This document shows positions 1 to 61,104 of a DNA stretch of 64,000 nt, piece after piece. The notes below the pieces were generated by a model, which was not told the origin of the DNA, did not search any database, and saw nothing but the letters and a program-made list of their open reading frames with translations. The DNA is from an uncultured Bacilli bacterium (GTDB lineage: Bacteria > Bacillota_I > Bacilli_A > RF39 > UBA660). Each line of letters starts with the position of its first letter. The first letter of the stretch is position 1. The stretch is taken from NCBI GenBank assembly GCA_947629815.1, contig CANRFG010000004.1:266-64265 (forward strand), in the 5' to 3' direction. The translations under genes and the position numbers were made by a program.

Positions 1-99
1 AGAAATTCTACTATATTTTGGTCAAATAGATTAAAATTTTCTGTTTTTATGCTATAATATTTAACGAAACAAATATTAATTAGAAAGTTGGGCAATATT

Positions 100-1179
100 A
101 TGAAAATCAATTGTGATGGTATTGTGCATAATCCGCTTGGAGGGGCTTCGTATATGTTTGAAAAAGAAATAATACCATATATTTTAAAACAATATACAAA
201 AAATATAATTAAAATTAGTGTTGGTGCACAGCCTAATTCTTCACCACATTTTGGTACTTTAGAAACAATAGCACTATCTTTTGGACTGGCATCAAATATT
301 ATGAAATATGATAAAAACAAGAAAGTTATAATTTTATACGAAGTAATTGATTCAGCTCCAAGTGAAACATCAATAATTAATGAAATAAAATATCAAAAAA
401 GTCTAAAATATACGGGAAAAATAAATGAATTTTTCAATGAATATTTAGAAATTTTAAATTATTATAAGAATTTAACCGGTATTGATTATGAAATAAGGTA
501 TCAGAAAGAATTTAATAGCCAACCTGAAATATCTAACATTATTAAAAAGATTATTGAAAATAAAGAATATATCAGTTCAAGACTTGATCCAAAATATAAT
601 AAAATCAGAATTAGAATGTCTTGCCCAAAATGTGGATTAACTGATAAGAATAGTATTTTAAACAAATATGAAAATAACAAAATAATATTTAATTGTCCTA
701 TACATGGCGAGTATTATGCAGATTTAAACAAAGATACATCAATGTTAGAATACAATTCGCCATATAGAAATTTAATTAGATGCATTTATTATACTTTAGT
801 TAATAATAATTCTAATTACGATTATCAAATTATTAGAGTTACGGGAAGTGACTATGCAGGATTTTATCAAGAAGAAATGAGATATAAACTTGCTTCTTAT
901 TTAGGTTATCCAGCACATACGTTATCAATGATATTTTATGCTCCACTTATATTAGATTGGTCTGGTGCTAAAATGTCTAAATCGTTATATGTTAAAGAAG
1001 GTGCTTATTCAGATATTCCTACTGCATTTATTAATTATAAATATTTAAAACAGGAATATGGATTAAATGGTTTAAAAAAATTATATGATATTGTTTCTAA
1101 TTGGTTTGAAAATCCTTATATGCTTTTTAGGCATTATACAATTTATTATTTTATTAAGGAGTTTGAAGAAAATGAATAA
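100..1179 (+). CDS. Class I aminoacyl-tRNA synthetase catalytic-domain paralog (LysRS-I/GluRS-like Rossmann core) lacking an anticodon-binding domain
   Basis: N-terminal HIGH-like signature PNSSPHFGTLETIALSFG and C-terminal SGAKMSKSLYV (KMSKS). CxxC...CxxH knuckle (CPKCG...CPIHG) as in class I CP insertions. Only ~60 aa follow KMSKS. TTG at 88 is an alternative start; ATG at 100 preceded by GGG. Confidence 0.55.
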   Translation: MKINCDGIVHNPLGGASYMFEKEIIPYILKQYTKNIIKISVGAQPNSSPHFGTLETIALSFGLASNIMKYDKNKKVIILYEVIDSAPSETSIINEIKYQKSLKYTGKINEFFNEYLEILNYYKNLTGIDYEIRYQKEFNSQPEISNIIKKIIENKEYISSRLDPKYNKIRIRMSCPKCGLTDKNSILNKYENNKIIFNCPIHGEYYADLNKDTSMLEYNSPYRNLIRCIYYTLVNNNSNYDYQIIRVTGSDYAGFYQEEMRYKLASYLGYPAHTLSMIFYAPLILDWSGAKMSKSLYVKEGAYSDIPTAFINYKYLKQEYGLNGLKKLYDIVSNWFENPYMLFRHYTIYYFIKEFEENE

Positions 1180-1588
1180 TGCAATTTTTGTCAGTATTAA
1201 TCCTATAGCAGCAGATAAAATTGAAAAAGGAATAAAGACATATGAATTTAGAAATTATATTTCCAAAAAAGAGTTTAATAAACTTTATGTATATGTTACT
1301 ACTCCCATTTGTGAATTAAAATATATAATGGAGATAACCGATATAATTAGCACTCCTCAAAAAATAGAAATTGAAGGAGATGGCAATAAACTTTTTAATG
1401 AAGGAAAAAAATCAAAATACGCATATAAAATTGATAAAGTTTATAAGCTAACTCATCCTATAAAACTATCTACTTTAAGAGAGAAATTTTATTTCACTCC
1501 ACCACAAAGTTATGCATATGAAACAAGATATCAAGAACTATCTGTTTTTTTGGAAAGAAGTGACAAGAAATTAATATGGAAAAGATAA
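1172..1588 (+). CDS. ASCH-domain protein (PUA-like beta-barrel)
   Basis: GxKxxExR ASCH signature (EKGIKTYEFR). ATG at 1172 with AAGGAG RBS. ORF-track start at 1085 lies inside the upstream gene and is not supported. Confidence 0.6.
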   Translation: MNNAIFVSINPIAADKIEKGIKTYEFRNYISKKEFNKLYVYVTTPICELKYIMEITDIISTPQKIEIEGDGNKLFNEGKKSKYAYKIDKVYKLTHPIKLSTLREKFYFTPPQSYAYETRYQELSVFLERSDKKLIWKR

Positions 1589-2277
1589 TAAATTTAGATA
1601 TAAATGATCAAGCATTTAAAGCCATAAAAAATGGTATCAAAAAAGTAGAAATAAGAGTTACTACTAATAAAAAAAAGAAAGATTATGGTAATATTAATTC
1701 AGGAGATATAATTATTTTTTCAAATTCTAAAAATGAAAGATTAAGATGTAAAGTAATAGAAAACATATGGTATAAAAATGAAAAGGAATTATTAATGGTT
1801 GAAGGGACAAAATATACCTTATCATCTACAAATGATTTCCAAATAGGTGTCAAATCAATTAATTCGTTTAAAAATTATACTCAGGGAATAAAAGAAAACG
1901 GCATATATGCAATTCACATTAAATGTATAGAAGTTAATAATTTTGATATGAAGTTAAAAAAAGAATATTATAATTCTGTCATCAATGGAACTAAAAGAAT
2001 AGAATTAAGATTAAATGACGAAAAAAGGCAAAAAATAAAAATAAATGATACAATAACATTTCATTTATTTGATGATTATAATAAATTTTTTACAGTTAAA
2101 GTTGTTGGATTGTCTTACTATAAATCAATACGAGATTTAATAAATGATTATAAAATAGAAAATTTAATTTCCAATAATATTACATCAGAAGAATTAATTA
2201 ATATTTTTAATAGTATTTATAAATTAGAAGATCAAGAAAAGTATGGTATTTTAGGTATCAGTTTCGTTATTATTTAA
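1576..2277 (+). CDS. Tandem double ASCH-domain protein
   Basis: Two GxKxxExR motifs (NGIKKVEIR and NGTKRIELR). Start overlaps upstream gene by 13 nt, suggesting coupling. Confidence 0.6.
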   Translation: MEKIINLDINDQAFKAIKNGIKKVEIRVTTNKKKKDYGNINSGDIIIFSNSKNERLRCKVIENIWYKNEKELLMVEGTKYTLSSTNDFQIGVKSINSFKNYTQGIKENGIYAIHIKCIEVNNFDMKLKKEYYNSVINGTKRIELRLNDEKRQKIKINDTITFHLFDDYNKFFTVKVVGLSYYKSIRDLINDYKIENLISNNITSEELINIFNSIYKLEDQEKYGILGISFVII

Positions 2278-2434
2278 TTTTAAGACAAATTTGTTTTAAT
2301 AATTTATATGAATAAATTTACTAAATGTAAAATATGTAACATAATTATATTAGTTGGTAGTTATTACTACTTGATTATTGGCATAAGAAAAGTTATTCGA
2401 CTTCTTCTCTATATACTCCAATTTTGTTTATAAC

Positions 2435-2463
2435 TTGCACAAACATTAATTTTATGGTATTAT
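2435..2463 (+). promoter_or_regulatory. sigma-A-like promoter, unit 1 (TTGCAC-17nt-TGg-TATTAT)
   Basis: Near-consensus -35, 17-nt spacer, extended -10. Same architecture conserved in unit 2. Confidence 0.45.
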
Positions 2464-2469
2464 GTATTT

Positions 2470-2584
2470 GGCAAGAGAAATTGCATAAAATAAAAAGGGA
2501 ACGTTCAGTTTTTGCGAGTTGAATGTCTACCCAAAAAATTAGTTCGACATTTAATTCTTATGAATTAAGTGTCATTTCTTTATT
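2470..2584 (+). ncRNA. Candidate ~110-nt sRNA (putative type I antitoxin RNA), copy 1
   Basis: Bounded by the promoter at 2435-2463 and the intrinsic terminator at 2546-2584. No conserved ORF. Internal hairpin gggaacgttca/tgaatgtctaccc. Confidence 0.4.
2546..2584. terminator. Bidirectional intrinsic terminator shared by convergent sRNA and peptide ORF (copy 1)
   Basis: Stem gacatttaattc/gaattaagtgtc with loop ttatg. T-run follows on the + strand and an A-run precedes it (T-run on the - strand). Confidence 0.5.
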
Positions 2585-2664
2585 ACTACTATCATAATGA
2601 TAAGGAGAAATAAAATGATAGTAATGAACTTTAGAACTTTTATTGTAAAAGTCTTAGTTTTCAC
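2572..2664 (-). CDS. 30-aa hydrophobic KK-terminated peptide, type I toxin-like (MKTKTFTIKVLKFITIILFLLIIMIVVIKK)
   Basis: GTG start 8 nt downstream of GAGGAGG, which lies in the perfectly conserved block. Stop abuts the terminator. Paralog in unit 2 has identical length and conservative or synonymous substitutions only. Confidence 0.5.
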   Translation of the reverse strand: MKTKTFTIKVLKFITIILFLLIIMIVVIKK

Positions 2665-2895
2665 TATATCAAACCTCCTCTCTGTAAGAGATTTGGTAGA
2701 CACTCAACAACTGATATTCCCTATATGAATTATATATCGTATATAATTATAAAACAAGCGAACAGACTACAAAATGAAATAAAATTTTTAAAAATATTCT
2801 ATAATTATATTAGTTAGTAGCTATTACTACTTGACTTATTGGTATAAGATTAGTCATTTGACTTTTTCTCTATATATTTTAATTTTGTTTATAAT

Positions 2896-2924
2896 TTGCA
2901 TAAATACTAATTTTATGATATTAT
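2896..2924 (+). promoter_or_regulatory. sigma-A-like promoter, unit 2 (TTGCAT-17nt-TGa-TATTAT)
   Basis: Positional homolog of the 2435-2463 promoter. Confidence 0.45.
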
Positions 2925-2930
2925 GAATAT

Positions 2931-3044
2931 GTCAAGGAAACTTGAATAAAATAAAAAGGGAACATTCAGTTTTTGCAAGTTGAATGTCTACCCAAAATAA
3001 ATTTGTTTAGGCACTTATTCTAGCGAATGAGTGTCATTTTTTTA
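2931..3044 (+). ncRNA. Candidate ~110-nt sRNA (putative type I antitoxin RNA), copy 2
   Basis: Promoter at 2896-2924, terminator at 3012-3044. Homologous to copy 1 with compensatory stem changes. Confidence 0.4.
3012..3044. terminator. Bidirectional intrinsic terminator (copy 2)
   Basis: Stem cacttattc/gaatgagtg (includes one G-U pair), loop tagc, T7 run. Stem sequence differs from copy 1 but pairing is preserved. Confidence 0.5.
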
Positions 3045-3126
3045 TTACTATAACCATTATGATTAGGAGTAGTAAAATGATAGAAATAAGCCTTAGAATT
3101 TTTATAATAAAAATCCTTTTCTTCAT
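3034..3126 (-). CDS. 30-aa hydrophobic KK-terminated peptide, type I toxin-like (MKKRIFIIKILRLISIILLLLIIMVIVIKK)
   Basis: ATG start 8 nt after GAGGAGG. 93 nt with no indels relative to copy 1. 16 differing codons, of which 4 are synonymous and most of the rest conservative. Confidence 0.5.
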   Translation of the reverse strand: MKKRIFIIKILRLISIILLLLIIMVIVIKK

Positions 3127-3380
3127 TTATATCAAACCTCCTCTCTGTAAGAGATTTGGTAGACACTCAACAACTGATATTCCCTATACAAATTATATAT
3201 TATATATAATTATAAAACAAGCGAACAACTATAAAAATATAACAAAATTATTAATTAAATATAGATTAGTTATATAATTTTTTATTTTTAACTACAATTT
3301 ATTTATACAAATTATTGAATATTATTAGGTCTTTTTTTTTGTAAAAAAAAATTGTATAATTATCTATATGGAGGTAAATT

Positions 3381-18317: not shown

Positions 18318-19607
18318 ATGATAGACATAAGATTAATAAGAGAAAATAAAGAAATGGTAAAAGAAAATATAAAGAAAAAATTTCAAGATAGTAAATTACC
18401 ATTAGTAGATGAAGTAGAAAAATTAGATATAGAACTTAGACAATTAAAATTAGAGGGCGATAATTTAAGACAAGAAAGAAATACAATCAGTAGTGAGATT
18501 GGTTCTTTAATGCGTGATAAAAAATTAGAAGAAGCAAATTCTAAAAAATTAGAAGTTGTAGAAATTAATAAGAAACTACAAACTATTGAAGAAAAAGAAG
18601 AAAAAATAAATCAAGAAATTAAAAGTAAAATGATGTTAATTCCTAATATAATTGATGAAAGTGTTCCAATTGGAAAAGATGATAGTGAGAATGTTGAGAT
18701 TGAAAAGTTTGGAGAACCAATCGTTCCAAACTATGAAATTCCATATCATGCAGACATAATGGAAAAGTTGTCAGGGCTTGATAAAGAATCTGCTGGAAGA
18801 ACAAGTGGTAATGGTTTTTATTATTTAATGGGTGATATTGCAAGACTTCATGAAGCAACAATTGCTTATGCAAGAGATTTTATGATTAATAAAGGTTTTA
18901 CATATTGTATACCTCCTTTTATGATAAGAGGAGATGTTGTTAATGGTGTAATGTCTTTTGCAGAAATGGATTCTATGATGTATAAAATAGAAAATGAAGA
19001 CTTATATTTAATTGGTACTTCTGAACATTCAATGATAGGTAAGTTTAAAGGCGAATTAATAGATGAAAAAGAGTTACCTATAACGATGACTTCTTATTCT
19101 CCTTGTTTTAGAAAAGAAGTAGGTGCGCATGGATTAGAAGAAAGAGGACTTTATAGAGTACATCAATTTGAAAAACAAGAAATGGTAGTTTTATGTAAGC
19201 CTGAAGATTCAATGGATTGGTATAATAAAATGTGGCAATTTACTGTTGAATTCTTTAGAAGCTTAGATGTCCCTGTTAGAACATTAGAATGTTGTAGTGG
19301 CGATTTAGCTGATTTAAAAGTAAAATCATGTGATGTTGAAGCATGGAGTCCAAGACAAAAAAAATATTTTGAAGTTGGCTCTTGTTCAACACTTGGAGAT
19401 GCCCAAGCAAGAAGATTAGGTATTAGAATGAAAACGGAAAGTGGCAATCAGTTCCTATCTACTTTAAACAATACTGTAATTGCAAGCCCTAGAGCGTTAA
19501 TAGCCATTATAGAAAATAATTATCAGGAAGATGGGTCAATAAAAATACCAAAAGTATTACAACAATATATGGGTGGAAAAGAGAAAATCGAAAAGAAGTA
19601 TATATAA
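18318..19607 (+). CDS. serS: Seryl-tRNA synthetase
   Basis: N-terminal coiled-coil arm. Class II motifs (RVHQFEKQEMV, GSCSTLGDAQARRL). AAGGAGG RBS. Confidence 0.9.
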   Translation: MIDIRLIRENKEMVKENIKKKFQDSKLPLVDEVEKLDIELRQLKLEGDNLRQERNTISSEIGSLMRDKKLEEANSKKLEVVEINKKLQTIEEKEEKINQEIKSKMMLIPNIIDESVPIGKDDSENVEIEKFGEPIVPNYEIPYHADIMEKLSGLDKESAGRTSGNGFYYLMGDIARLHEATIAYARDFMINKGFTYCIPPFMIRGDVVNGVMSFAEMDSMMYKIENEDLYLIGTSEHSMIGKFKGELIDEKELPITMTSYSPCFRKEVGAHGLEERGLYRVHQFEKQEMVVLCKPEDSMDWYNKMWQFTVEFFRSLDVPVRTLECCSGDLADLKVKSCDVEAWSPRQKKYFEVGSCSTLGDAQARRLGIRMKTESGNQFLSTLNNTVIASPRALIAIIENNYQEDGSIKIPKVLQQYMGGKEKIEKKYI

Positions 19608-38532: not shown

Positions 38533-38895
38533 ATGTCAAAAATAAATATAAAAGTTTCACTTACTTGTAATGAAAGTATAATATATAATGACCATAAGTT
38601 TATAGGAATAAAAACATCAAATGAAATAAAATACAAAGAAAATGATGTAATGGTTACTATTAAAATAAATGAAAATCAAATTGAAATTCAAAGACGAAAT
38701 AATGAATATAAATTAGATTTAATTTTCATTGAAAATAAAGAAACAACTTGTTTATATGAACTTAATAAATATGGTACTATAAAGTTAGAATTATTTACAA
38801 AAAAAATAATTTGTGATAATCATATTAGTATAGAATATTATATAAATAAACAAGATGAACTTTATAAATTTGATTTATACTATGAGGTGATATAG
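38533..38895 (+). CDS. DUF1934-like small protein upstream of argS
   Basis: About 120 aa. Position immediately upstream of and abutting argS, as with ywiB-type genes in Firmicutes. AGGTGA RBS. Confidence 0.45.
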   Translation: MSKINIKVSLTCNESIIYNDHKFIGIKTSNEIKYKENDVMVTIKINENQIEIQRRNNEYKLDLIFIENKETTCLYELNKYGTIKLELFTKKIICDNHISIEYYINKQDELYKFDLYYEVI

Positions 38896-40565
38896 TGGAC
38901 ATAAAAGAACAATTAAAAAATGATGTATATGAAGTATTAAAAGATTATGTAAAAAAAGAAGACATAATAATAGAAAAACCTAAAATAAGGGAAATGGGAG
39001 ATTATGCTTTACCTTGTTTTACATATTCAAAAATACTTAGAAAATCTCCAAATGATATAGCTAATTTAATAAAAGAAAATCTAAAAAATTATGAAATTAA
39101 TGTAATAAATGGATATGCTAATGTATTTATAAATAAAAAAGATTTTTCTAAAAATATATTAAATAAAATATTACTTGATAAAGAAAATTATGGTAGTTCA
39201 AATATAGGCAATAATAAAAAAATAGTAATTGAATATTCATCCCCTAATGTAGCGAAACCATTTGGAGTAGGACATTTAAGAAGCACTGCAATAGGTGAGG
39301 CTTTAAAAAATATATGCTTAAAAACAGGATATAAAGTTTATACAATAAATTACTTAGGTGATTATGGAACACAATTTGGGAAACTTATATATGCTTATAA
39401 AAAATGGGGAAATGAAGAAGAAGTTAAAAAAAATCCAATTGTCGAACTTAAAAAACTTTATGTTAAGTTTCATGATGAAGCAAGTATTAATCCATCTCTT
39501 GAAGATGAAGGAAGAAAATGGTTTAAAAAGTTAGCTGAAAATGATAGTGAGGCTTTAGAACTTTGGAATTGGTTTAAAGAAGAATCAATAAAAGAATATG
39601 AAAAAACTTATAATTTGTTAGGAATAAATAAATTTGATTCATATATAGGGGAATCATATTATAAAGATGCTTGTAATGATGTTGTAAAAGAAATAGAACA
39701 AAAAGGTCTTTCTAAAATAAGTGAAGGCGCAACCATAGTTGATTTAGGAGAAGATAAAGTACCTGCTATTATTAAAAAAAGTGATGGAACTACTCTTTAT
39801 ATAACTAGGGATATTGCTGCTTTATTAGATAGAAAAAAAACATATGATTTTGATGAGATGTTATATGTAGTAGGAACTGAACAAAAGTTGCATTTTGAAC
39901 AATTAAAAGAAGTATTAAATAAAATGGGATATGATTATAATATTACTCATATTGGATTTGGAATGGTTTTACAAGATGGTAAGAAAATGTCTACTAGAGG
40001 AGGTAAAACTGCTTCATTAGAAAGTTTATTAAATGATTCTATTGATTTAGCGCGAAAAATAATAGATGAAAAAAATCCTAATTTAAAAAATAAGGAAGAA
40101 GTTATAAAACAAGTAGGTGTAGGCGCTGTAATATTTAATGATTTAAAAAATTATAGAATTAATGACATAGAATTTAAATTAGAGGATATATTAAAATTTG
40201 AAGGTGAAACAGGTCCTTATGTTCAATATACACATGCAAGGATAAATTCACTTATAAAAAATATGAATAATATTAACATAAATTATGATTTAATAAATAT
40301 TAATGAATATGAATGGAATGTATTATTTAGTCTAGGGGAATTTAAAGATGTTATTGTTAAATCAAAACTTAATTATGACCCTAGTTTGATTGCTAAATAC
40401 ATTATTGATTTAGCTCAAGATTTTAATAAGTTATATGCTAATTATAAATTTATAATTGAAGATGAAAATTTAATGGAATTTAGATTACAAATAGCTTATT
40501 GTACTAAAATAATTCTTAAAGAAGGAATGCGTTTACTTGGAATAAATGCACCAGATGAAATGTAG
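38895..40565 (+). CDS. argS: Arginyl-tRNA synthetase
   Basis: SSPNVAKPFGVGHLRST (HIGH region). Class I core. C-terminal DALR-like domain. GTG start after GAGGTGA. Confidence 0.9.
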   Translation: MDIKEQLKNDVYEVLKDYVKKEDIIIEKPKIREMGDYALPCFTYSKILRKSPNDIANLIKENLKNYEINVINGYANVFINKKDFSKNILNKILLDKENYGSSNIGNNKKIVIEYSSPNVAKPFGVGHLRSTAIGEALKNICLKTGYKVYTINYLGDYGTQFGKLIYAYKKWGNEEEVKKNPIVELKKLYVKFHDEASINPSLEDEGRKWFKKLAENDSEALELWNWFKEESIKEYEKTYNLLGINKFDSYIGESYYKDACNDVVKEIEQKGLSKISEGATIVDLGEDKVPAIIKKSDGTTLYITRDIAALLDRKKTYDFDEMLYVVGTEQKLHFEQLKEVLNKMGYDYNITHIGFGMVLQDGKKMSTRGGKTASLESLLNDSIDLARKIIDEKNPNLKNKEEVIKQVGVGAVIFNDLKNYRINDIEFKLEDILKFEGETGPYVQYTHARINSLIKNMNNININYDLININEYEWNVLFSLGEFKDVIVKSKLNYDPSLIAKYIIDLAQDFNKLYANYKFIIEDENLMEFRLQIAYCTKIILKEGMRLLGINAPDEM

Positions 40566-57425: not shown

Positions 57426-57489
57426 ACCTTGAAATAAAATTAGTTTATGATATAATACTTAATAGTTAAAAGTTATGACGAAAAAGTAG

Positions 57490-57678
57490 TAATAAAATAA
57501 GTTATTTAAAGAGAGCTAGTGTAGGTGTGAATCTAGTAATAACATTTTATGAATTCATTTTCTGAACTTTATAATGCAAAGTTATAACGGTAACGCGTTT
57601 TAGTTAATGAGGTAGTATAATCTACGAATTAAGGTGGTACCACGTAATCACGTCCTTATAATAGGATGTGATTTTTTT
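57490..57678 (+). promoter_or_regulatory. T-box riboswitch leader for pheST
   Basis: T-box sequence aattaaggtggtaccacg (57627-57644). Terminator atcacgtcc-ttataata-ggatgtgat plus T6. Upstream extended -10 TGaTATAAT. Confidence 0.75.
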
Positions 57679-57692
57679 AATAGGAGGATATT

Positions 57693-58730
57693 ATGAATAA
57701 TGAAGAAATATTAAAAGAATTAGAACAAAAAATTAAGAAAGTTACAAATCTAAATGAATTAAATGATGTAAAAATAGAGTATTTGAGTAAAAAAGGTATT
57801 ATTAGTTCTTTAACTAGTAAATTATCTTCTTTGCCTGTTGAAGAAAAGAAAAGTTTTGGTGCGAAATTAAATGAATTAAAAGATAAAGCATCAACTATGA
57901 TAGAAGAAAAAAGAAGTGAAATAGAAACAAAATTATTAAATGAAAAATTAAATAATGAAAGTATTGATATAACACTTCCATCAACAAAAATACCTTCGGG
58001 TGTTCCTAATATATTAGAAAAAATAGTAGAAGAAGTAGAAGATTTATTAATGTCTATGGGATATGATGTAGTAGATGGACCTGAGATAGAAGAAGATAAA
58101 TTTAACTTCGAACTTTTAAATATACCAAAAGGACACCCAGCTCGTGATGCACAAGATACATTTTACATAAAAGATGAGGAAATATTACTTCGTAGTCAAA
58201 CTTCACCTGTACAAGCTCGTACTATGCTTGAAGGAAAAGGAGAAGTTCCAATAAGAATGATTTGTCCTGGAAAAACATATAGAAGAGATGATGATGACGC
58301 AACACATTCACATCAATTCATGCAAATAGAAGGCCTACTTGTAGATAAAAATGTAAGTTTGTCAGATTTAAAAGGAACTTTTGATTTAATAGCTAAAAGA
58401 TTATTTGGTGATGATTGTAAAACAAGATTTAGACCAAGTTATTATCAATTTACAGAACCATCAGTAGAAACAGATATAAGTTGCTTTAATTGTCATGGAC
58501 AAGGTTGTAATATTTGTAAAAACACAGGCTGGATTACAGTTGCAGGAGCAGGTATAGTTCACCCCAATGTATTAAGAAATTGTGGATATGACCCTGATGT
58601 TTGGACAGGTTTTGCTTTTGGTTTTGGCGCTGAAAGACTTGCAATGTTGAAATATGGAATAAACGATATAAGAACATTTTATTCAACAGATTTAAGAGAA
58701 GTAAAAACATTTGATAGAAAGGACATGTAA
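57693..58730 (+). CDS. pheS: Phenylalanyl-tRNA synthetase alpha subunit
   Basis: Class II motifs (FRPSYYQFTEPS, GAGIVHPNVL, GFAFGFGAERLAM). Confidence 0.9.
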   Translation: MNNEEILKELEQKIKKVTNLNELNDVKIEYLSKKGIISSLTSKLSSLPVEEKKSFGAKLNELKDKASTMIEEKRSEIETKLLNEKLNNESIDITLPSTKIPSGVPNILEKIVEEVEDLLMSMGYDVVDGPEIEEDKFNFELLNIPKGHPARDAQDTFYIKDEEILLRSQTSPVQARTMLEGKGEVPIRMICPGKTYRRDDDDATHSHQFMQIEGLLVDKNVSLSDLKGTFDLIAKRLFGDDCKTRFRPSYYQFTEPSVETDISCFNCHGQGCNICKNTGWITVAGAGIVHPNVLRNCGYDPDVWTGFAFGFGAERLAMLKYGINDIRTFYSTDLREVKTFDRKDM

Positions 58731-58731
58731 T

Positions 58732-61104
58732 ATGATTAGTTTAGATTGGGTTAAAGATTATATAGATTTAGAAAATGAAGATTTAAAAGAATTGGCTGTA
58801 AAAGTAACACAAGCAGGAGTTAATGTAGAAAAAGTAATAACTAATCATATAGATAATTTAGTTATAGGAAAAGTTATTGAATGTTATGCTCATCCGGATA
58901 GTGACCATCTTCATATATGTAAAGTAGATGTTGGAAATGAAACTTTACAAATTGTTTGCGGCGCTCCTAATGTTAGAGAAGGTATAAAGGTTATAGTTGC
59001 GCTTCCAGGTGCAGTTTTACCAGGAGATTTTGAAATCAAAAAAGGAAAAATTCGTGGTGAAGAGTCTAATGGAATGATATGTGCTTTATTTGAACTTGGT
59101 TTAGAAGAAAAAACAGAAGAAAATTATAACAAAGGTATACATGAATTAGGAAATGATGCGATAGTTGGTTCTAATCCTTTTGAATATTTAGGTTTAGAAG
59201 ATACTTTATATGAATTAGATGTACATAAACATCGTAACAATGACTGTTATTATCATATTGGTTTTGCTTATGAAATCGCTTCTATATTAAATAAAAAAGT
59301 AACACTTCCTTCTACATCATCAAATAGTATTAGTGATGACATTAAAAATCATTTTGAGTTATCAGTAGAAACAAATAAATGCCCATACTATTTAGCTAAA
59401 ATGGTTACAGATGTTAAAGTAAAAGAATCTCCAGAATTTATTAAAAGAAGATTATCATCTGCAGGAATGCGTTCTATCAATAATGTAGTAGATATATCAA
59501 ATTATGTAATGTTAGAATTTGGTCAACCTTTACATTTCTTTGACAAAGACAAATTAGGTAATAAGGTAGTTGTAAGAGATGCTAAAGAAAAAGAAGAAAT
59601 TGTAACTTTAGATGGAAAAAATAGAATTTTAAAATCAAGTGATATTGTTATCACTGATGGAGTAAAACCTGTTTGTATAGCTGGTGTTATGGGTGGAGAA
59701 AATACAGAAGTAGATGAAAATACAAAAACAATTTTAATAGAAAGTGCGATATTTGACGCTACTAGTATAAGATATACTGCAAATAATTTAAATTTAAAAA
59801 GTGAAGCTTCAATTCGTTATGGTAAAGGTTTAAATTATGAATATACCGATTTAGCGATTAATAGAGCTTGTCATTTGTTAGAAAAATATGCAGATGCTAA
59901 AGTACTTTCTGGTATTGTAAAACACGATAAAGTCGATAAAACTCCTAAAAAAGTTTCATTTACAAATAAAGATATAAATTCTATATTAGGTATTGAAATA
60001 AGTTTAGAAGATGTAAAAAAAGAACTTGAAAGATTAGATTTTGATTATAAAGTAAATAATGGTGTTTTTGAGGTTACTATACCTAATAGAAGACTTGATA
60101 TTGACCCTAATGTAAATGATATTGCAGAGGAAATAGGTAGATTATATGGATATCATAATTTAGTATCTACTTTACCTATTGCAAGTATTAAAAAGGGTGA
60201 ATATAAAGGTGATGTAAAATATAGGAAAATGATTTCTAAAAGACTTAGAAGTTTAGGCATAAATGAGTCAAAAACTTATACTTTAGTATCACCTGAGATG
60301 TCTAAGTTATTTAAATATGATAATAAAGATAATGTAGTTTTGCCAAATCCTATGAGTGTAGATAAATCTATTGTAAGAACTACTATATTACCATCTTTAT
60401 TAAATGTTTATGAGTATAACAAAGCAAGAAAAGTAAAAGATGTTTTAATATATGAAATAAGTAAGACTTATGATTCTACACTTACTGAAGAAACTAAAAT
60501 AGCTATTTTAATGAAAGGAAATTATATAACTAATAGTTGGCAAAATAATAGTGTTAAAGTCGATTTTTATTTAGTGAAAGGCATAGTTGAAAATATACTT
60601 GATTATCTTGGACTTAAAAATAGATATTCATTTGAAAAAGATACTATACCTGATTTACATCCAGGCATTTGTGCGAATGTAATTCTTGATAAAGAAAAAG
60701 TAGGAATAATTGGTAGAGTTCATCCAACTTTAAAGAAAGATGAAATTTATGTATGTGAGTTATCACTTACTAAACTTATTAAAACTGTAAAACCAATTAA
60801 ATATAAACAAGCATCAAGATATCCAGAAATTGTTAAAGATTTAGCTTTTATAGTAGATGAAAATGTAACTTCACAACAATTAGTTAATCAAATTAAAAAA
60901 TCTGGTGGAAGACTTTTAACTGATATTGATGTTTTTGATGTATATGTTGGTGAAAATATAGAAAAAGGTAAAAAATCTATTGCTTATTCTTTAACTTTTA
61001 GCGATCCATCTCGTACACTTAATGATTTAGAAGTAACAGAAATATTTAATAAAATAATAGATGAAGTACAAGAAAAATGTAATGCAAAAATAAGAGATAA
61101 TTAG
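58732..61104 (+). CDS. pheT: Phenylalanyl-tRNA synthetase beta subunit
   Basis: N-terminal tRNA-binding domain, B3/4, B5 and C-terminal FDX-ACB domains. Immediately follows pheS. Confidence 0.9.
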   Translation: MISLDWVKDYIDLENEDLKELAVKVTQAGVNVEKVITNHIDNLVIGKVIECYAHPDSDHLHICKVDVGNETLQIVCGAPNVREGIKVIVALPGAVLPGDFEIKKGKIRGEESNGMICALFELGLEEKTEENYNKGIHELGNDAIVGSNPFEYLGLEDTLYELDVHKHRNNDCYYHIGFAYEIASILNKKVTLPSTSSNSISDDIKNHFELSVETNKCPYYLAKMVTDVKVKESPEFIKRRLSSAGMRSINNVVDISNYVMLEFGQPLHFFDKDKLGNKVVVRDAKEKEEIVTLDGKNRILKSSDIVITDGVKPVCIAGVMGGENTEVDENTKTILIESAIFDATSIRYTANNLNLKSEASIRYGKGLNYEYTDLAINRACHLLEKYADAKVLSGIVKHDKVDKTPKKVSFTNKDINSILGIEISLEDVKKELERLDFDYKVNNGVFEVTIPNRRLDIDPNVNDIAEEIGRLYGYHNLVSTLPIASIKKGEYKGDVKYRKMISKRLRSLGINESKTYTLVSPEMSKLFKYDNKDNVVLPNPMSVDKSIVRTTILPSLLNVYEYNKARKVKDVLIYEISKTYDSTLTEETKIAILMKGNYITNSWQNNSVKVDFYLVKGIVENILDYLGLKNRYSFEKDTIPDLHPGICANVILDKEKVGIIGRVHPTLKKDEIYVCELSLTKLIKTVKPIKYKQASRYPEIVKDLAFIVDENVTSQQLVNQIKKSGGRLLTDIDVFDVYVGENIEKGKKSIAYSLTFSDPSRTLNDLEVTEIFNKIIDEVQEKCNAKIRDN

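Follow-up and report, generated by a model that had tools for sequence, protein, structure and literature searches.

At the start of the 64,000-nucleotide window analysed here, a stretch of contig CANRFG010000004.1 from an uncultured Bacilli bacterium (assembly GCA_947629815.1), three + strand genes with overlapping ends, g1, g2 and g3, lie within positions 100-2277; the start of g2 overlaps the stop of g1 by 8 nt, and the start of g3 overlaps the stop of g2 by 13 nt (Table 1). The first gene, whose ATG at position 100 corresponds to the Met at which its homologues begin in an alignment, encodes a protein resembling the catalytic core of aminoacyl-tRNA synthetases (aaRS) of class I, and the other two together encode three ASCH domains. 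No description of such an aaRS-like/ASCH pairing was found in the literature, and no Pfam, NCBIfam or PDB entry covers the g1 family.

Table 1. Features of the g1-g2-g3 cassette and of the window that contains it (positions are those of the window)
Feature	Position	Strand	Remarks
Promoter-like site upstream of g1	31-58	+	TTAAAA, 16-nt spacer, TG-TATAAT (TG-extended -10); consensus match only
g1	100-1179	+	359 aa; class I LysRS-like aaRS catalytic core without anticodon-binding domain
HIGH-like motif S-P-H-F-G-T (g1 residues 48-53)	241-258	+	Read from sequence
Putative Cys3His metal knuckle, C175-P-K-C178 ... C199-P-I-H202	622-705	+	Invariant across superfamily alignment
KMSKS motif (g1 residues 291-295)	970-984	+	Read from sequence
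g2	1172-1588	+	138-aa ASCH protein, type A (ZmASCH-like); ATG at 1172
g3	1576-2277	+	233 aa, two ASCH domains; ATG at 1576
g3 N-terminal ASCH domain, type B	1576-1935	+	Pfam ASCH
g3 C-terminal ASCH domain, type C	1936-2277	+	Pfam ASCH, phrog_19935
serS	18318-19607		Genuine synthetase gene
argS	38895-40565		Genuine synthetase gene
T-box leader upstream of pheS/pheT	57466-57660		94 bits
pheS/pheT	57693-61104		Genuine synthetase genes

The original prediction, made from the sequence alone, held that g1 is a truncated paralogue of a class I synthetase catalytic domain close to those of LysRS and GluRS, and profile and fold comparisons bear this out. The sole Pfam family matched by g1 and several of its homologues is tRNA-synt_1f (class I LysRS, PF01921), at 15.7 bits for g1 and 25.8-26.6 bits for the best homologues, every member falling under the 27-bit gathering cut-off. 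No NCBIfam family model matches g1, g2 or g3, and searches of PDB chain sequences with g1 and with the g1-family profile returned chance coiled-coil matches only. An AlphaFold (AF2) model of g1, built on 37 homologues, has a predicted local distance difference test score (pLDDT) of 89.9 and a predicted template modelling score (pTM) of 0.90, and Foldseek matches it first to class I LysRS (1irx, E 1.6e-9), then to BshC (4wbd, E 4.8e-6), and then to many GluRS, ArgRS, MetRS, GluQRS (4a91, E 2.7e-4) and CysRS structures, with 1irx, GluRS, ArgRS, MetRS and CysRS each at probability 1.0. With class I LysRS (LysK), g1 shares a Rossmann catalytic core with an inserted connective peptide (CP) region, HIGH and KMSKS motifs, and a Cys/His knuckle in the insertion. 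It differs in its identity of 12-16%, in lacking the anticodon-binding and C-terminal domains (the 1irx chains have 507-508 residues), and in being rare, mobile and genetically tied to ASCH genes. The C-terminus falls 64 residues past KMSKS, close to the 60 or so first estimated, and this last segment is helical in the model. The safe conclusion is that g1 is a divergent, truncated class Ib synthetase-like enzyme.

The SPHFGT and KMSKS signatures and the Cys/His knuckle are all present as predicted, and they are too well conserved to be accidental. Among the 37 homologues, H50, G52, T53, K291, S293, K294 and the three Cys are invariant, as are E81, D251, Y252, Y256, Q257, E258 and E259 among many acidic and aromatic residues. 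Across a superfamily alignment of 14 members that share 20-30% identity and include fungal, phage and plasmid proteins, the invariant residues are the Q and G-T of QPNxxPHxGT, the three Cys and the His, the R of RNL, GxD, and the G-K-x-x-K of GAKLSKS. This pattern fits an intact, working ATP site rather than a decayed pseudo-enzyme. One detail was misread: the layout given as H-x-G-x-x-x-E-x-x-x-A is in fact H-x-G-x-x-E-x-x-A, and its Glu is not conserved among homologues. The KMSKS loop (residues 289-294) is modelled at low pLDDT, as expected of a mobile loop. Separately, residues 6-20 of g1 (window 115-159) read D-G-x-V-x-x-P-L-G-G-A-S-Y-x-F and are near-invariant from bacteria to fungi, being kept also in the second repeat of fungal tandem proteins; despite this conservation they are modelled at pLDDT 55-74, and they may form a lid or partner-binding segment.

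All three ASCH domains that had been recognized by their GxKxxExR motifs were recovered, the two of g3 with the Pfam ASCH profile (PF04266) and that of g2 through a match to a solved structure. The octapeptides are GIKTYEFR in g2, GIKKVEIR in the N-terminal half of g3 and GTKRIELR in the C-terminal half; neither the g2 nor the g3 family varies at K, E or R, and the Glu at the sixth position of all three assigns them to the GKER type and not to the YqfB type (GKTR, with Thr). The whole of g3 matches PF04266 in two stretches (47.5 bits, 3e-12; cut-off 21.2 bits), its C half alone at 34.7 bits (3e-8) and its N half alone, just short of the cut-off, at 20.5 bits (8e-4). The C domain matches phrog_19935 at 4.6e-28, and a profile of both halves with their relatives matches three ASCH structures from Pyrococcus, namely PH0355, PF0455 and PF0469, the best of them at 6.8e-24 (2z0t). 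For g2, which has no match to PF04266, the family profile matches the crystal structure of the Zymomonas ASCH protein ZmASCH (5gus, 1.5e-11), and the ASCH part of a modelled natural g1-g2 fusion superposes on 5gus with a template modelling (TM) score of 0.68. Residues K22, E25, R27, Y41, P111 and Q112 are invariant in the g2 family. In addition, g2 matches phrog_3136 at 1.2e-13 and, at 6.6e-14, PDC-M11B, a component of a defence candidate in PADLOC whose A component is matched by neither g1 nor g3. Between the g2 and g3 families the relationship is weak (hhalign probability 4.9%); they are distinct ASCH subfamilies, linked only via fold and motif. A 2026 preprint reports that GKER-type ASCH proteins hydrolyse N4-acetylcytidine (ac4C), both free and in tRNA, that the K and E of the octapeptide are essential, and that every ASCH protein tested, GKER types included, strips ac4C from tRNA (bioRxiv 10.64898/2026.02.27.708502). 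The octapeptide, with its catalytic K and E, is common to the cassette and to YqfB (which has Thr for Glu), TthASCH, EOLA1, TRIP4-ASCH, ZmASCH and PH0355, but none of these studied proteins is linked or fused to an aaRS-like enzyme.

The pairing of g1 with ASCH genes is far beyond chance. A motif scan of approximately 185,000 species genomes, with one genome sampled per species, found 63 loci, and among the 61 that are informative a g2 gene lies directly downstream of g1 in 53, approximately 2 kb downstream in three and upstream in one, and is absent from four. An additional g3-type ASCH gene is present in 35 of the 50 loci with enough downstream sequence, where the type of the g3 N domain is a separate third cassette gene in 26 and that of the C domain stands as a gene of its own in 15, frequently on the opposite strand. 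The hosts include gut Bacilli and Clostridia, Planifilum, Thermoactinomyces, and Saccharibacteria, WWE3 and Peribacteria among bacteria (some of them of the candidate phyla radiation, CPR), and Woese-, Pace-, Nano- and Iainarchaeota (DPANN), Methanosarcinales and Halobacteriales among archaea. The spread is patchy, with g1 proteins of bacteria and archaea sharing 45-50% identity. In total, the g1 family amounts to 312 close homologues, 473 clusters at 50% identity, or 860 matches with a broader profile; IMG/VR holds no close relative in its 2.9 million viral contigs.

Fusions and distant relatives extend the association. In at least four protein clusters (P0054, P0059, P0063 and P0070), g1 and a type-A ASCH domain like that of g2 form a single polypeptide, and g1-like domains have been fused independently to ASCH domains of the g3 C type on Streptomyces and Prauserella plasmids and in many Pseudonocardiaceae, where the products are annotated merely as 'ASCH domain-containing protein'. 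In the temperate Streptomyces phage Picard, gp28, annotated as 'tRNA synthetase' and 21% identical to g1, overlaps the ASCH gene gp29, which is of the same type as the g3 C domain; gp28 aligns with the g1 family at an hhalign probability of 99.4% with all motifs in register, its PHIGT facing the HIGH-like motif of g1, and the two genes sit between the endolysin and serine integrase genes, in the lysogeny/moron region. A Ruminococcaceae metagenome-assembled genome (MAG) encodes a g1 relative of 30% identity that still has a type-A ASCH gene in its cluster. Adjacency, independent fusion and the distant phage pair together attest to the co-conservation of ASCH genes with g1 in other genomes on which the original prediction turned.

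Several details of these loci may be recorded alongside. Genes gp26-gp29 of Picard (L068 5918-8439) encode an anti-sigma-like HATPase_c_2 protein, an unknown protein, the aaRS-like protein and the ASCH protein, at a site that is a typical place for lysogenic-conversion or defence genes. The actinomycete fusions, of 478-496 aa, follow genes for an unknown protein of approximately 300 aa and an AAA_28 P-loop protein, in that order, on plasmids and chromosomes (L071 6419-9365, L072 6227-9356, L074 4471-7438), and in the PLSDB table the annotation of the fusion covers its ASCH end alone. An ASCH gene is absent from a Pacearchaeota locus (L048 5947-7813) and from a Pantoea plasmid (L070 6174-7969), in both of which a class I S-adenosylmethionine (SAM) methyltransferase gene adjoins the g1-like gene. 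Agaricomycete fungi (Jaapia argillacea, Abortiporus biennis) likewise encode g1 homologues (P0125, P0126, P0129, P0130, P0153), all annotated as hypothetical, with long N-terminal extensions and no ASCH domain; in some of them, of 800-980 aa, two catalytic domains lie in tandem. The fungal arginine-containing cyclodipeptide synthases (RCDPS) AnkA and AvaA have the catalytic residues C193, DDxxE, Y392 and Y515 (PMC11610942), and an assignment to them is not favoured by these published motifs: no DDxxE is visible in the conserved columns of the g1 family, including its fungal members, whose conserved motifs are of the HIGH/KMSKS type.

What surrounds the cassette varies widely. The bare cassette occurs in unrelated contexts, and beyond the cassette itself no gene family recurs at more than a few loci. 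In the longer operons that include it, the additional genes, on mobile DNA, suggest small-molecule chemistry of nucleosides or nucleotides. The richest example is an island of approximately 17 kb in three to five species of gut Bacilli and Erysipelotrichaceae (L066 1-19086; also L026, L028, L029 and L067), which splits a Peptidase_S11 gene and terminates in an ISL3 transposase and a large serine recombinase. Its genes encode, in order, a PHP phosphoesterase, a DegT protein, a BlsE-type radical SAM protein, a second DegT protein, an unknown protein, an APH(3')-like kinase, a 699-aa protein, a protein of the nucleoside 2-deoxyribosyltransferase family (Nuc_deoxyrib_tr), g1, a MazG-like protein, an ABC-F protein and g2. 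The radical SAM protein matches the BlsE-type cytosylglucuronate decarboxylase model (TIGR04466, 2.6e-49), and the C-terminal half of the 699-aa protein matches cytosylglucuronate (CGA) synthase (TIGR04467, 5.7e-49); the deoxyribosyltransferase family is that of the CMP (cytidine monophosphate) hydrolases of blasticidin- and mildiomycin-type pathways. The ABC-F protein is of the ribosomal-protection type, scoring above the curated cut-off, and in three species its gene is inserted between g1 and g2. Neither a 311-aa protein of the island nor the whole 699-aa protein, its N-terminal part included, has a PDB match, and g1 is the sole recognizable ligase. The island is a candidate cytosyl nucleoside antibiotic cluster outside the actinomycetes, with a blasticidin/mildiomycin-like gene set.

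Other mobile contexts are of a similar kind. On the Macrococcus plasmids pML2573_1 (L069 4134-8048) and p19Msa0383-2 (L073 4563-8477), two ATP-grasp ligase genes precede g1 and g2, beside divergently transcribed genes for a major facilitator superfamily (MFS) transporter and a helix-turn-helix (HTH) regulator, and the operon looks like a cluster for a small peptide- or nucleoside-type product; the plasmids are mobilizable and of a staphylococcal family. The Pantoea plasmid carries genes for a methyltransferase, the g1-like protein, a LOG-family nucleotide nucleosidase, a drug/metabolite transporter (DMT) exporter and a Ham1 nucleoside triphosphate (NTP) pyrophosphatase, and a separate clostridial lineage, too, has a MazG-like gene beside the cassette. 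More distant g1 relatives are accompanied by ATP-binding cassette (ABC) exporters, methyltransferases, DegT proteins and radical SAM/SPASM enzymes. It is safe to conclude that the g1/ASCH module is mobile and undescribed. Two further relatives stand apart: protein P0211 fuses a divergent g1-like domain to a pyruvoyl-type AdoMet/arginine decarboxylase domain (PF02675, 8.4e-19), which hints that the acceptor or donor in its lineage is a decarboxylated amine, and at a Woesearchaeota locus (L064 5878-8195) a 25%-identical g1-like gene, seemingly without the His of the HIGH motif, adjoins a full CysRS-type gene, a DegT aminotransferase gene and two radical SAM/SPASM genes.

The interpretation favoured here, to which a probability of roughly 40% is attached, is that g1 and g2 are the two subunits of an (amino)acyl ligase whose substrate is a nucleoside or nucleotide bearing cytosine, and that the extra ASCH domains are amidohydrolases. 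The HIGH/KMSKS ATP site of g1 would turn a carboxylate, most likely that of an amino acid, into an activated acyl-adenylate. In turn g2, a type-A ASCH protein presumably in physical complex with g1, would stand in for the missing anticodon-binding domain, its Lys/Glu/Arg pocket holding the cytosine-type nucleobase, and the acyl group would then be passed to an amine of the substrate to give an aminoacyl- (peptidyl-) nucleoside. The ASCH pair of g3, as amidohydrolases of the N4-acylcytidine-deacylase type, might reverse, trim or proof-read this product. In the elaborated clusters the g1-g2 pair would perform one step of a cytosyl peptidyl-nucleoside antibiotic pathway, or a self-protection branch of it; the bare cassette of the window, since it has no sugar-building genes beside it, would use a cytosine nucleoside or nucleotide that already exists, whether an endogenous one or an antibiotic that has been imported. 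With an antibiotic as substrate the cassette would serve modification or resistance, echoing the leucylation of blasticidin intermediates.

A cytosine nucleoside is favoured as acceptor because the pockets of ASCH proteins bind and deacylate N4-acylcytidine, according to the preprint, and because cytosine-nucleoside pathways and nucleotide-cleaning enzymes make up the only contexts that are rich in information. A small-molecule ligase is favoured because there are precedents with an aaRS fold, namely MshC, BshC and the aaRS-like enzymes found in nucleoside natural-product pathways (PMC12945691). MshC and BshC, which serve as cysteine ligases in the making of mycothiol and bacillithiol, join an amino acid to an amine on a small molecule of sugar type, and BshC is the second-best fold match of g1. 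They differ from g1 in their descent from the CysRS rather than the LysRS/GluRS lineage, in having no ASCH partner, and in their acceptors, which are glucosamine derivatives and not nucleosides. With the blasticidin S and mildiomycin pathways (BlsM, BlsD, BlsE, BlsH; BlsK) the likeness is that one branch of g1 resides in an island with a matching gene set. The hosts of that island are gut bacteria and not Streptomyces, however, and its amide-forming enzyme would be a LysRS-like g1 with an ASCH subunit, which is unreported in those pathways.

Several observations weigh against this interpretation. Class Ib synthetases (LysRS-I, GluRS and ArgRS) normally need tRNA for amino acid activation. ZmASCH, the closest solved relative of g2, binds and cleaves single-stranded RNA, and its nucleic-acid-binding residues Tyr47 and Ser128 align with conserved positions of g2, favouring an RNA substrate. 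The model of the g1-g2 fusion, a natural fused protein folded with a shallow ASCH alignment, has moderate inter-domain confidence (pTM 0.73). Finally, the CPR and DPANN cassettes sit among unrelated housekeeping genes, the cassette of the window lacks transporter and biosynthetic genes, and the small-molecule context is limited to a minority of loci and to more distant relatives.

The main rival, which can be entertained only tentatively, is an RNA-base writer and eraser, in which g1 with an RNA-binding g2 would acylate a base of tRNA or of another RNA, such as the N4 of cytidine, which TmcAL acylates with acetate, or a hypermodified base in the manner of GluQRS, and g3 would remove the mark. 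Its attractions are the aaRS fold of g1 with a helical segment after KMSKS, the presence of GluQRS among the fold matches, the retention by g2 of the ZmASCH nucleic-acid-binding residues, the removal of ac4C from tRNA by the ASCH proteins tested, and the position of a ribosome-associated ATPase gene, ABC-F, between g1 and g2 in three species. GluQRS (YadB) is a truncated GluRS paralogue that glutamylates queuosine in tRNA-Asp, modifying a base and not the 3' end (PMC9437257), and it shares with g1 a class Ib core that lacks the anticodon-binding domain. Unlike g1, it works alone, with no ASCH protein, and is chromosomal and vertically inherited in proteobacteria, and g1 matches no Pfam or NCBIfam model of GluRS or GluQRS. 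TmcAL, the tRNA-Met cytidine acetate ligase, is an aaRS-related enzyme that forms an acyl-adenylate and acylates the N4 of cytidine, making ac4C (PMC12514573). Its chemistry is that proposed for g1, and the bond it makes is the bond that ASCH enzymes hydrolyse. It differs in using acetate, in targeting C34 of tRNA-Met and in having no ASCH partner, and g1 matches no TmcAL model in Pfam or NCBIfam and does not recover TmcAL among its top 50 PDB fold matches.

A modification that tunes translation would also be unusual in so patchy, rare and mobile a family, with 63 loci in approximately 185,000 species genomes and occurrences on plasmids, in a prophage and in a recombinase-bounded island. Nor does RNA modification involve neighbours such as exporters, ATP-grasp ligases, CGA synthase, NTP pyrophosphatases and nucleosidases. 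The cassette has no consistent link with a tRNA gene, T-box or other RNA element, and neither in the window nor at ten related loci does a T-box, riboswitch or other Rfam element precede g1. Of the tRNA or RNA aminoacylation/modification module first proposed for the cassette, the synthetase-like core with its ASCH partner stands, and a tRNA or RNA substrate is not established; no tRNA-linked regulator or RNA element accompanies the cassette. The recurrent extra neighbours, which are small-molecule enzymes of nucleosides and nucleotides, exporters and resistance genes on mobile elements, speak no less strongly for a cytosine-type nucleoside or nucleotide as the thing aminoacylated. A formulation that spans both substrates, in which the LysRS-like/ASCH pair writes, and the extra ASCH domains erase, an aminoacyl group on the cytosine of free cytidine nucleotides or of RNA, is doubtful. 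If true, it would represent a new class of N4-aminoacyl-cytidine metabolite or RNA modification, and a portable module of gut Firmicutes, CPR, DPANN, actinomycetes and their plasmids and phages, found without ASCH in mushroom-forming fungi.

It is unlikely that the cassette is a conflict system of mobile elements, serving anti-phage defence or as a toxin/antidote pair, in which the ligase, upon infection, would make a toxic acylated nucleotide or damage an RNA and one ASCH domain would sense or neutralize the result. The PADLOC match of g2, the moron-region location in phage Picard, the actinomycete and Macrococcus plasmids, the patchy distribution with 45-50% identity between bacteria and archaea, and the lack of a conserved neighbour beyond the cassette are all as such a system would have it. 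Against these stand the failure of g1 to match any PADLOC model, the lack of close relatives in viral contigs, the housekeeping neighbours (nrdD/nrdG, rnfC) and absence of other defence genes at the window locus and its near relatives, and the lack of a linked effector such as a nuclease, pore or NADase; moreover, the proposal names a biological role and not a chemistry, and overlaps the other explanations.

Also to be weighed, and quite improbable, is a transferase of the SbzA or BlsK kind, which would not activate with ATP but would take the amino acid of a charged tRNA and place it on a nucleoside antibiotic bound by the ASCH protein, for pro-drug formation or self-resistance. BlsK, the blasticidin leucyltransferase, has a [3Fe-4S] cluster on three cysteines; it is described as a [3Fe-4S], tRNA-dependent aminoacyltransferase that confers self-protection (PMC12710036), and SbzA is a class I aaRS-like enzyme that uses aminoacyl-tRNA (PMC12945691). 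The invariance of exactly three Cys and one His across the g1 superfamily is a lead in this direction, as is the flanking of resistance-type MazG-like and ABC-F genes by g1 and g2 in the blasticidin-like island. The strictly conserved HIGH-like and KMSKS residues argue instead for ATP binding, and no protein named BlsK is among the best 120 of the 860 matches to the wider profile.

Highly improbable, finally, is a split non-canonical lysyl- or other aminoacyl-tRNA synthetase, such as an antibiotic-insensitive backup, in which g1 would charge the tRNA 3' end and g2 replace the anticodon-binding domain. In its favour, g1 has both its top fold match and its Pfam match in class I LysRS, the ASCH subfamily of g2 is an RNA-binding one, and antibiotic gene clusters are known to carry synthetase copies as a means of resistance. 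Against it, identity to LysRS-I is 12-16%, the best Pfam score is 26.6 where 27 is the cut-off, none of the NCBIfam aaRS models matches, the fungal, Pantoea and Pacearchaeota variants dispense with an ASCH partner, two further ASCH domains would be left without a role, and g1 has no T-box while pheS in the window has one.

The g1 family would be a catalytic-domain synthetase paralogue recruited to non-translational acylation, with an unusual obligatory partner and an unusually wide, patchy distribution. Truncated synthetase paralogues have repeatedly shown unexpected chemistry, acting on queuosine (GluQRS), elongation factor P (PoxA), thiols (MshC and BshC) and tRNA (TmcAL). In a 2022 survey of such paralogues, the LysRS derivatives listed are all of class II, and none comes from class I LysRS (PMC9437257). 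The present family extends across three domains of life, with at least 470 clusters at 50% identity, and has neither a curated model nor a name. Its partnership gives a genetic context to ASCH domains, only recently shown to be N4-acetylcytidine deacylases, and yields a directly testable hypothesis, that of an acyl-cytosine ligase/hydrolase pair. The candidate island of gut Bacilli, if correctly read, would be a new source of, and contain a new amide-forming enzyme for, a blasticidin/mildiomycin-like drug class, and the island or cassette could possibly act as a transferable resistance cassette.

The remainder of the window is an ordinary low-GC Bacillota chromosome with rnfC/D, polA and a PBP1A gene, and with serS, argS and pheS/pheT, the genuine synthetase genes that had been noted elsewhere in the window. 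Within the window, the T-box leader before pheS/pheT is the sole match to an Rfam family. Composition does not mark the cassette as foreign, as G+C is 22-25% throughout, and in this AT-rich DNA promoter-like sites such as that upstream of g1 are no more numerous than in shuffled sequence. Near-identical loci occur in rabbit-gut MAGs classified as 'uncultured Bacilli', where nrdD/nrdG lie upstream. The 1.1-kb stretch between g3 and rnfC (2278-3380) contains no convincing open reading frame and has no Rfam match at E up to 1; its single reading frame of at least 50 aa is a low-complexity one of 72 aa at 3059-3277, and two terminator-like hairpins lie at 2546-2573 and 3010-3035.

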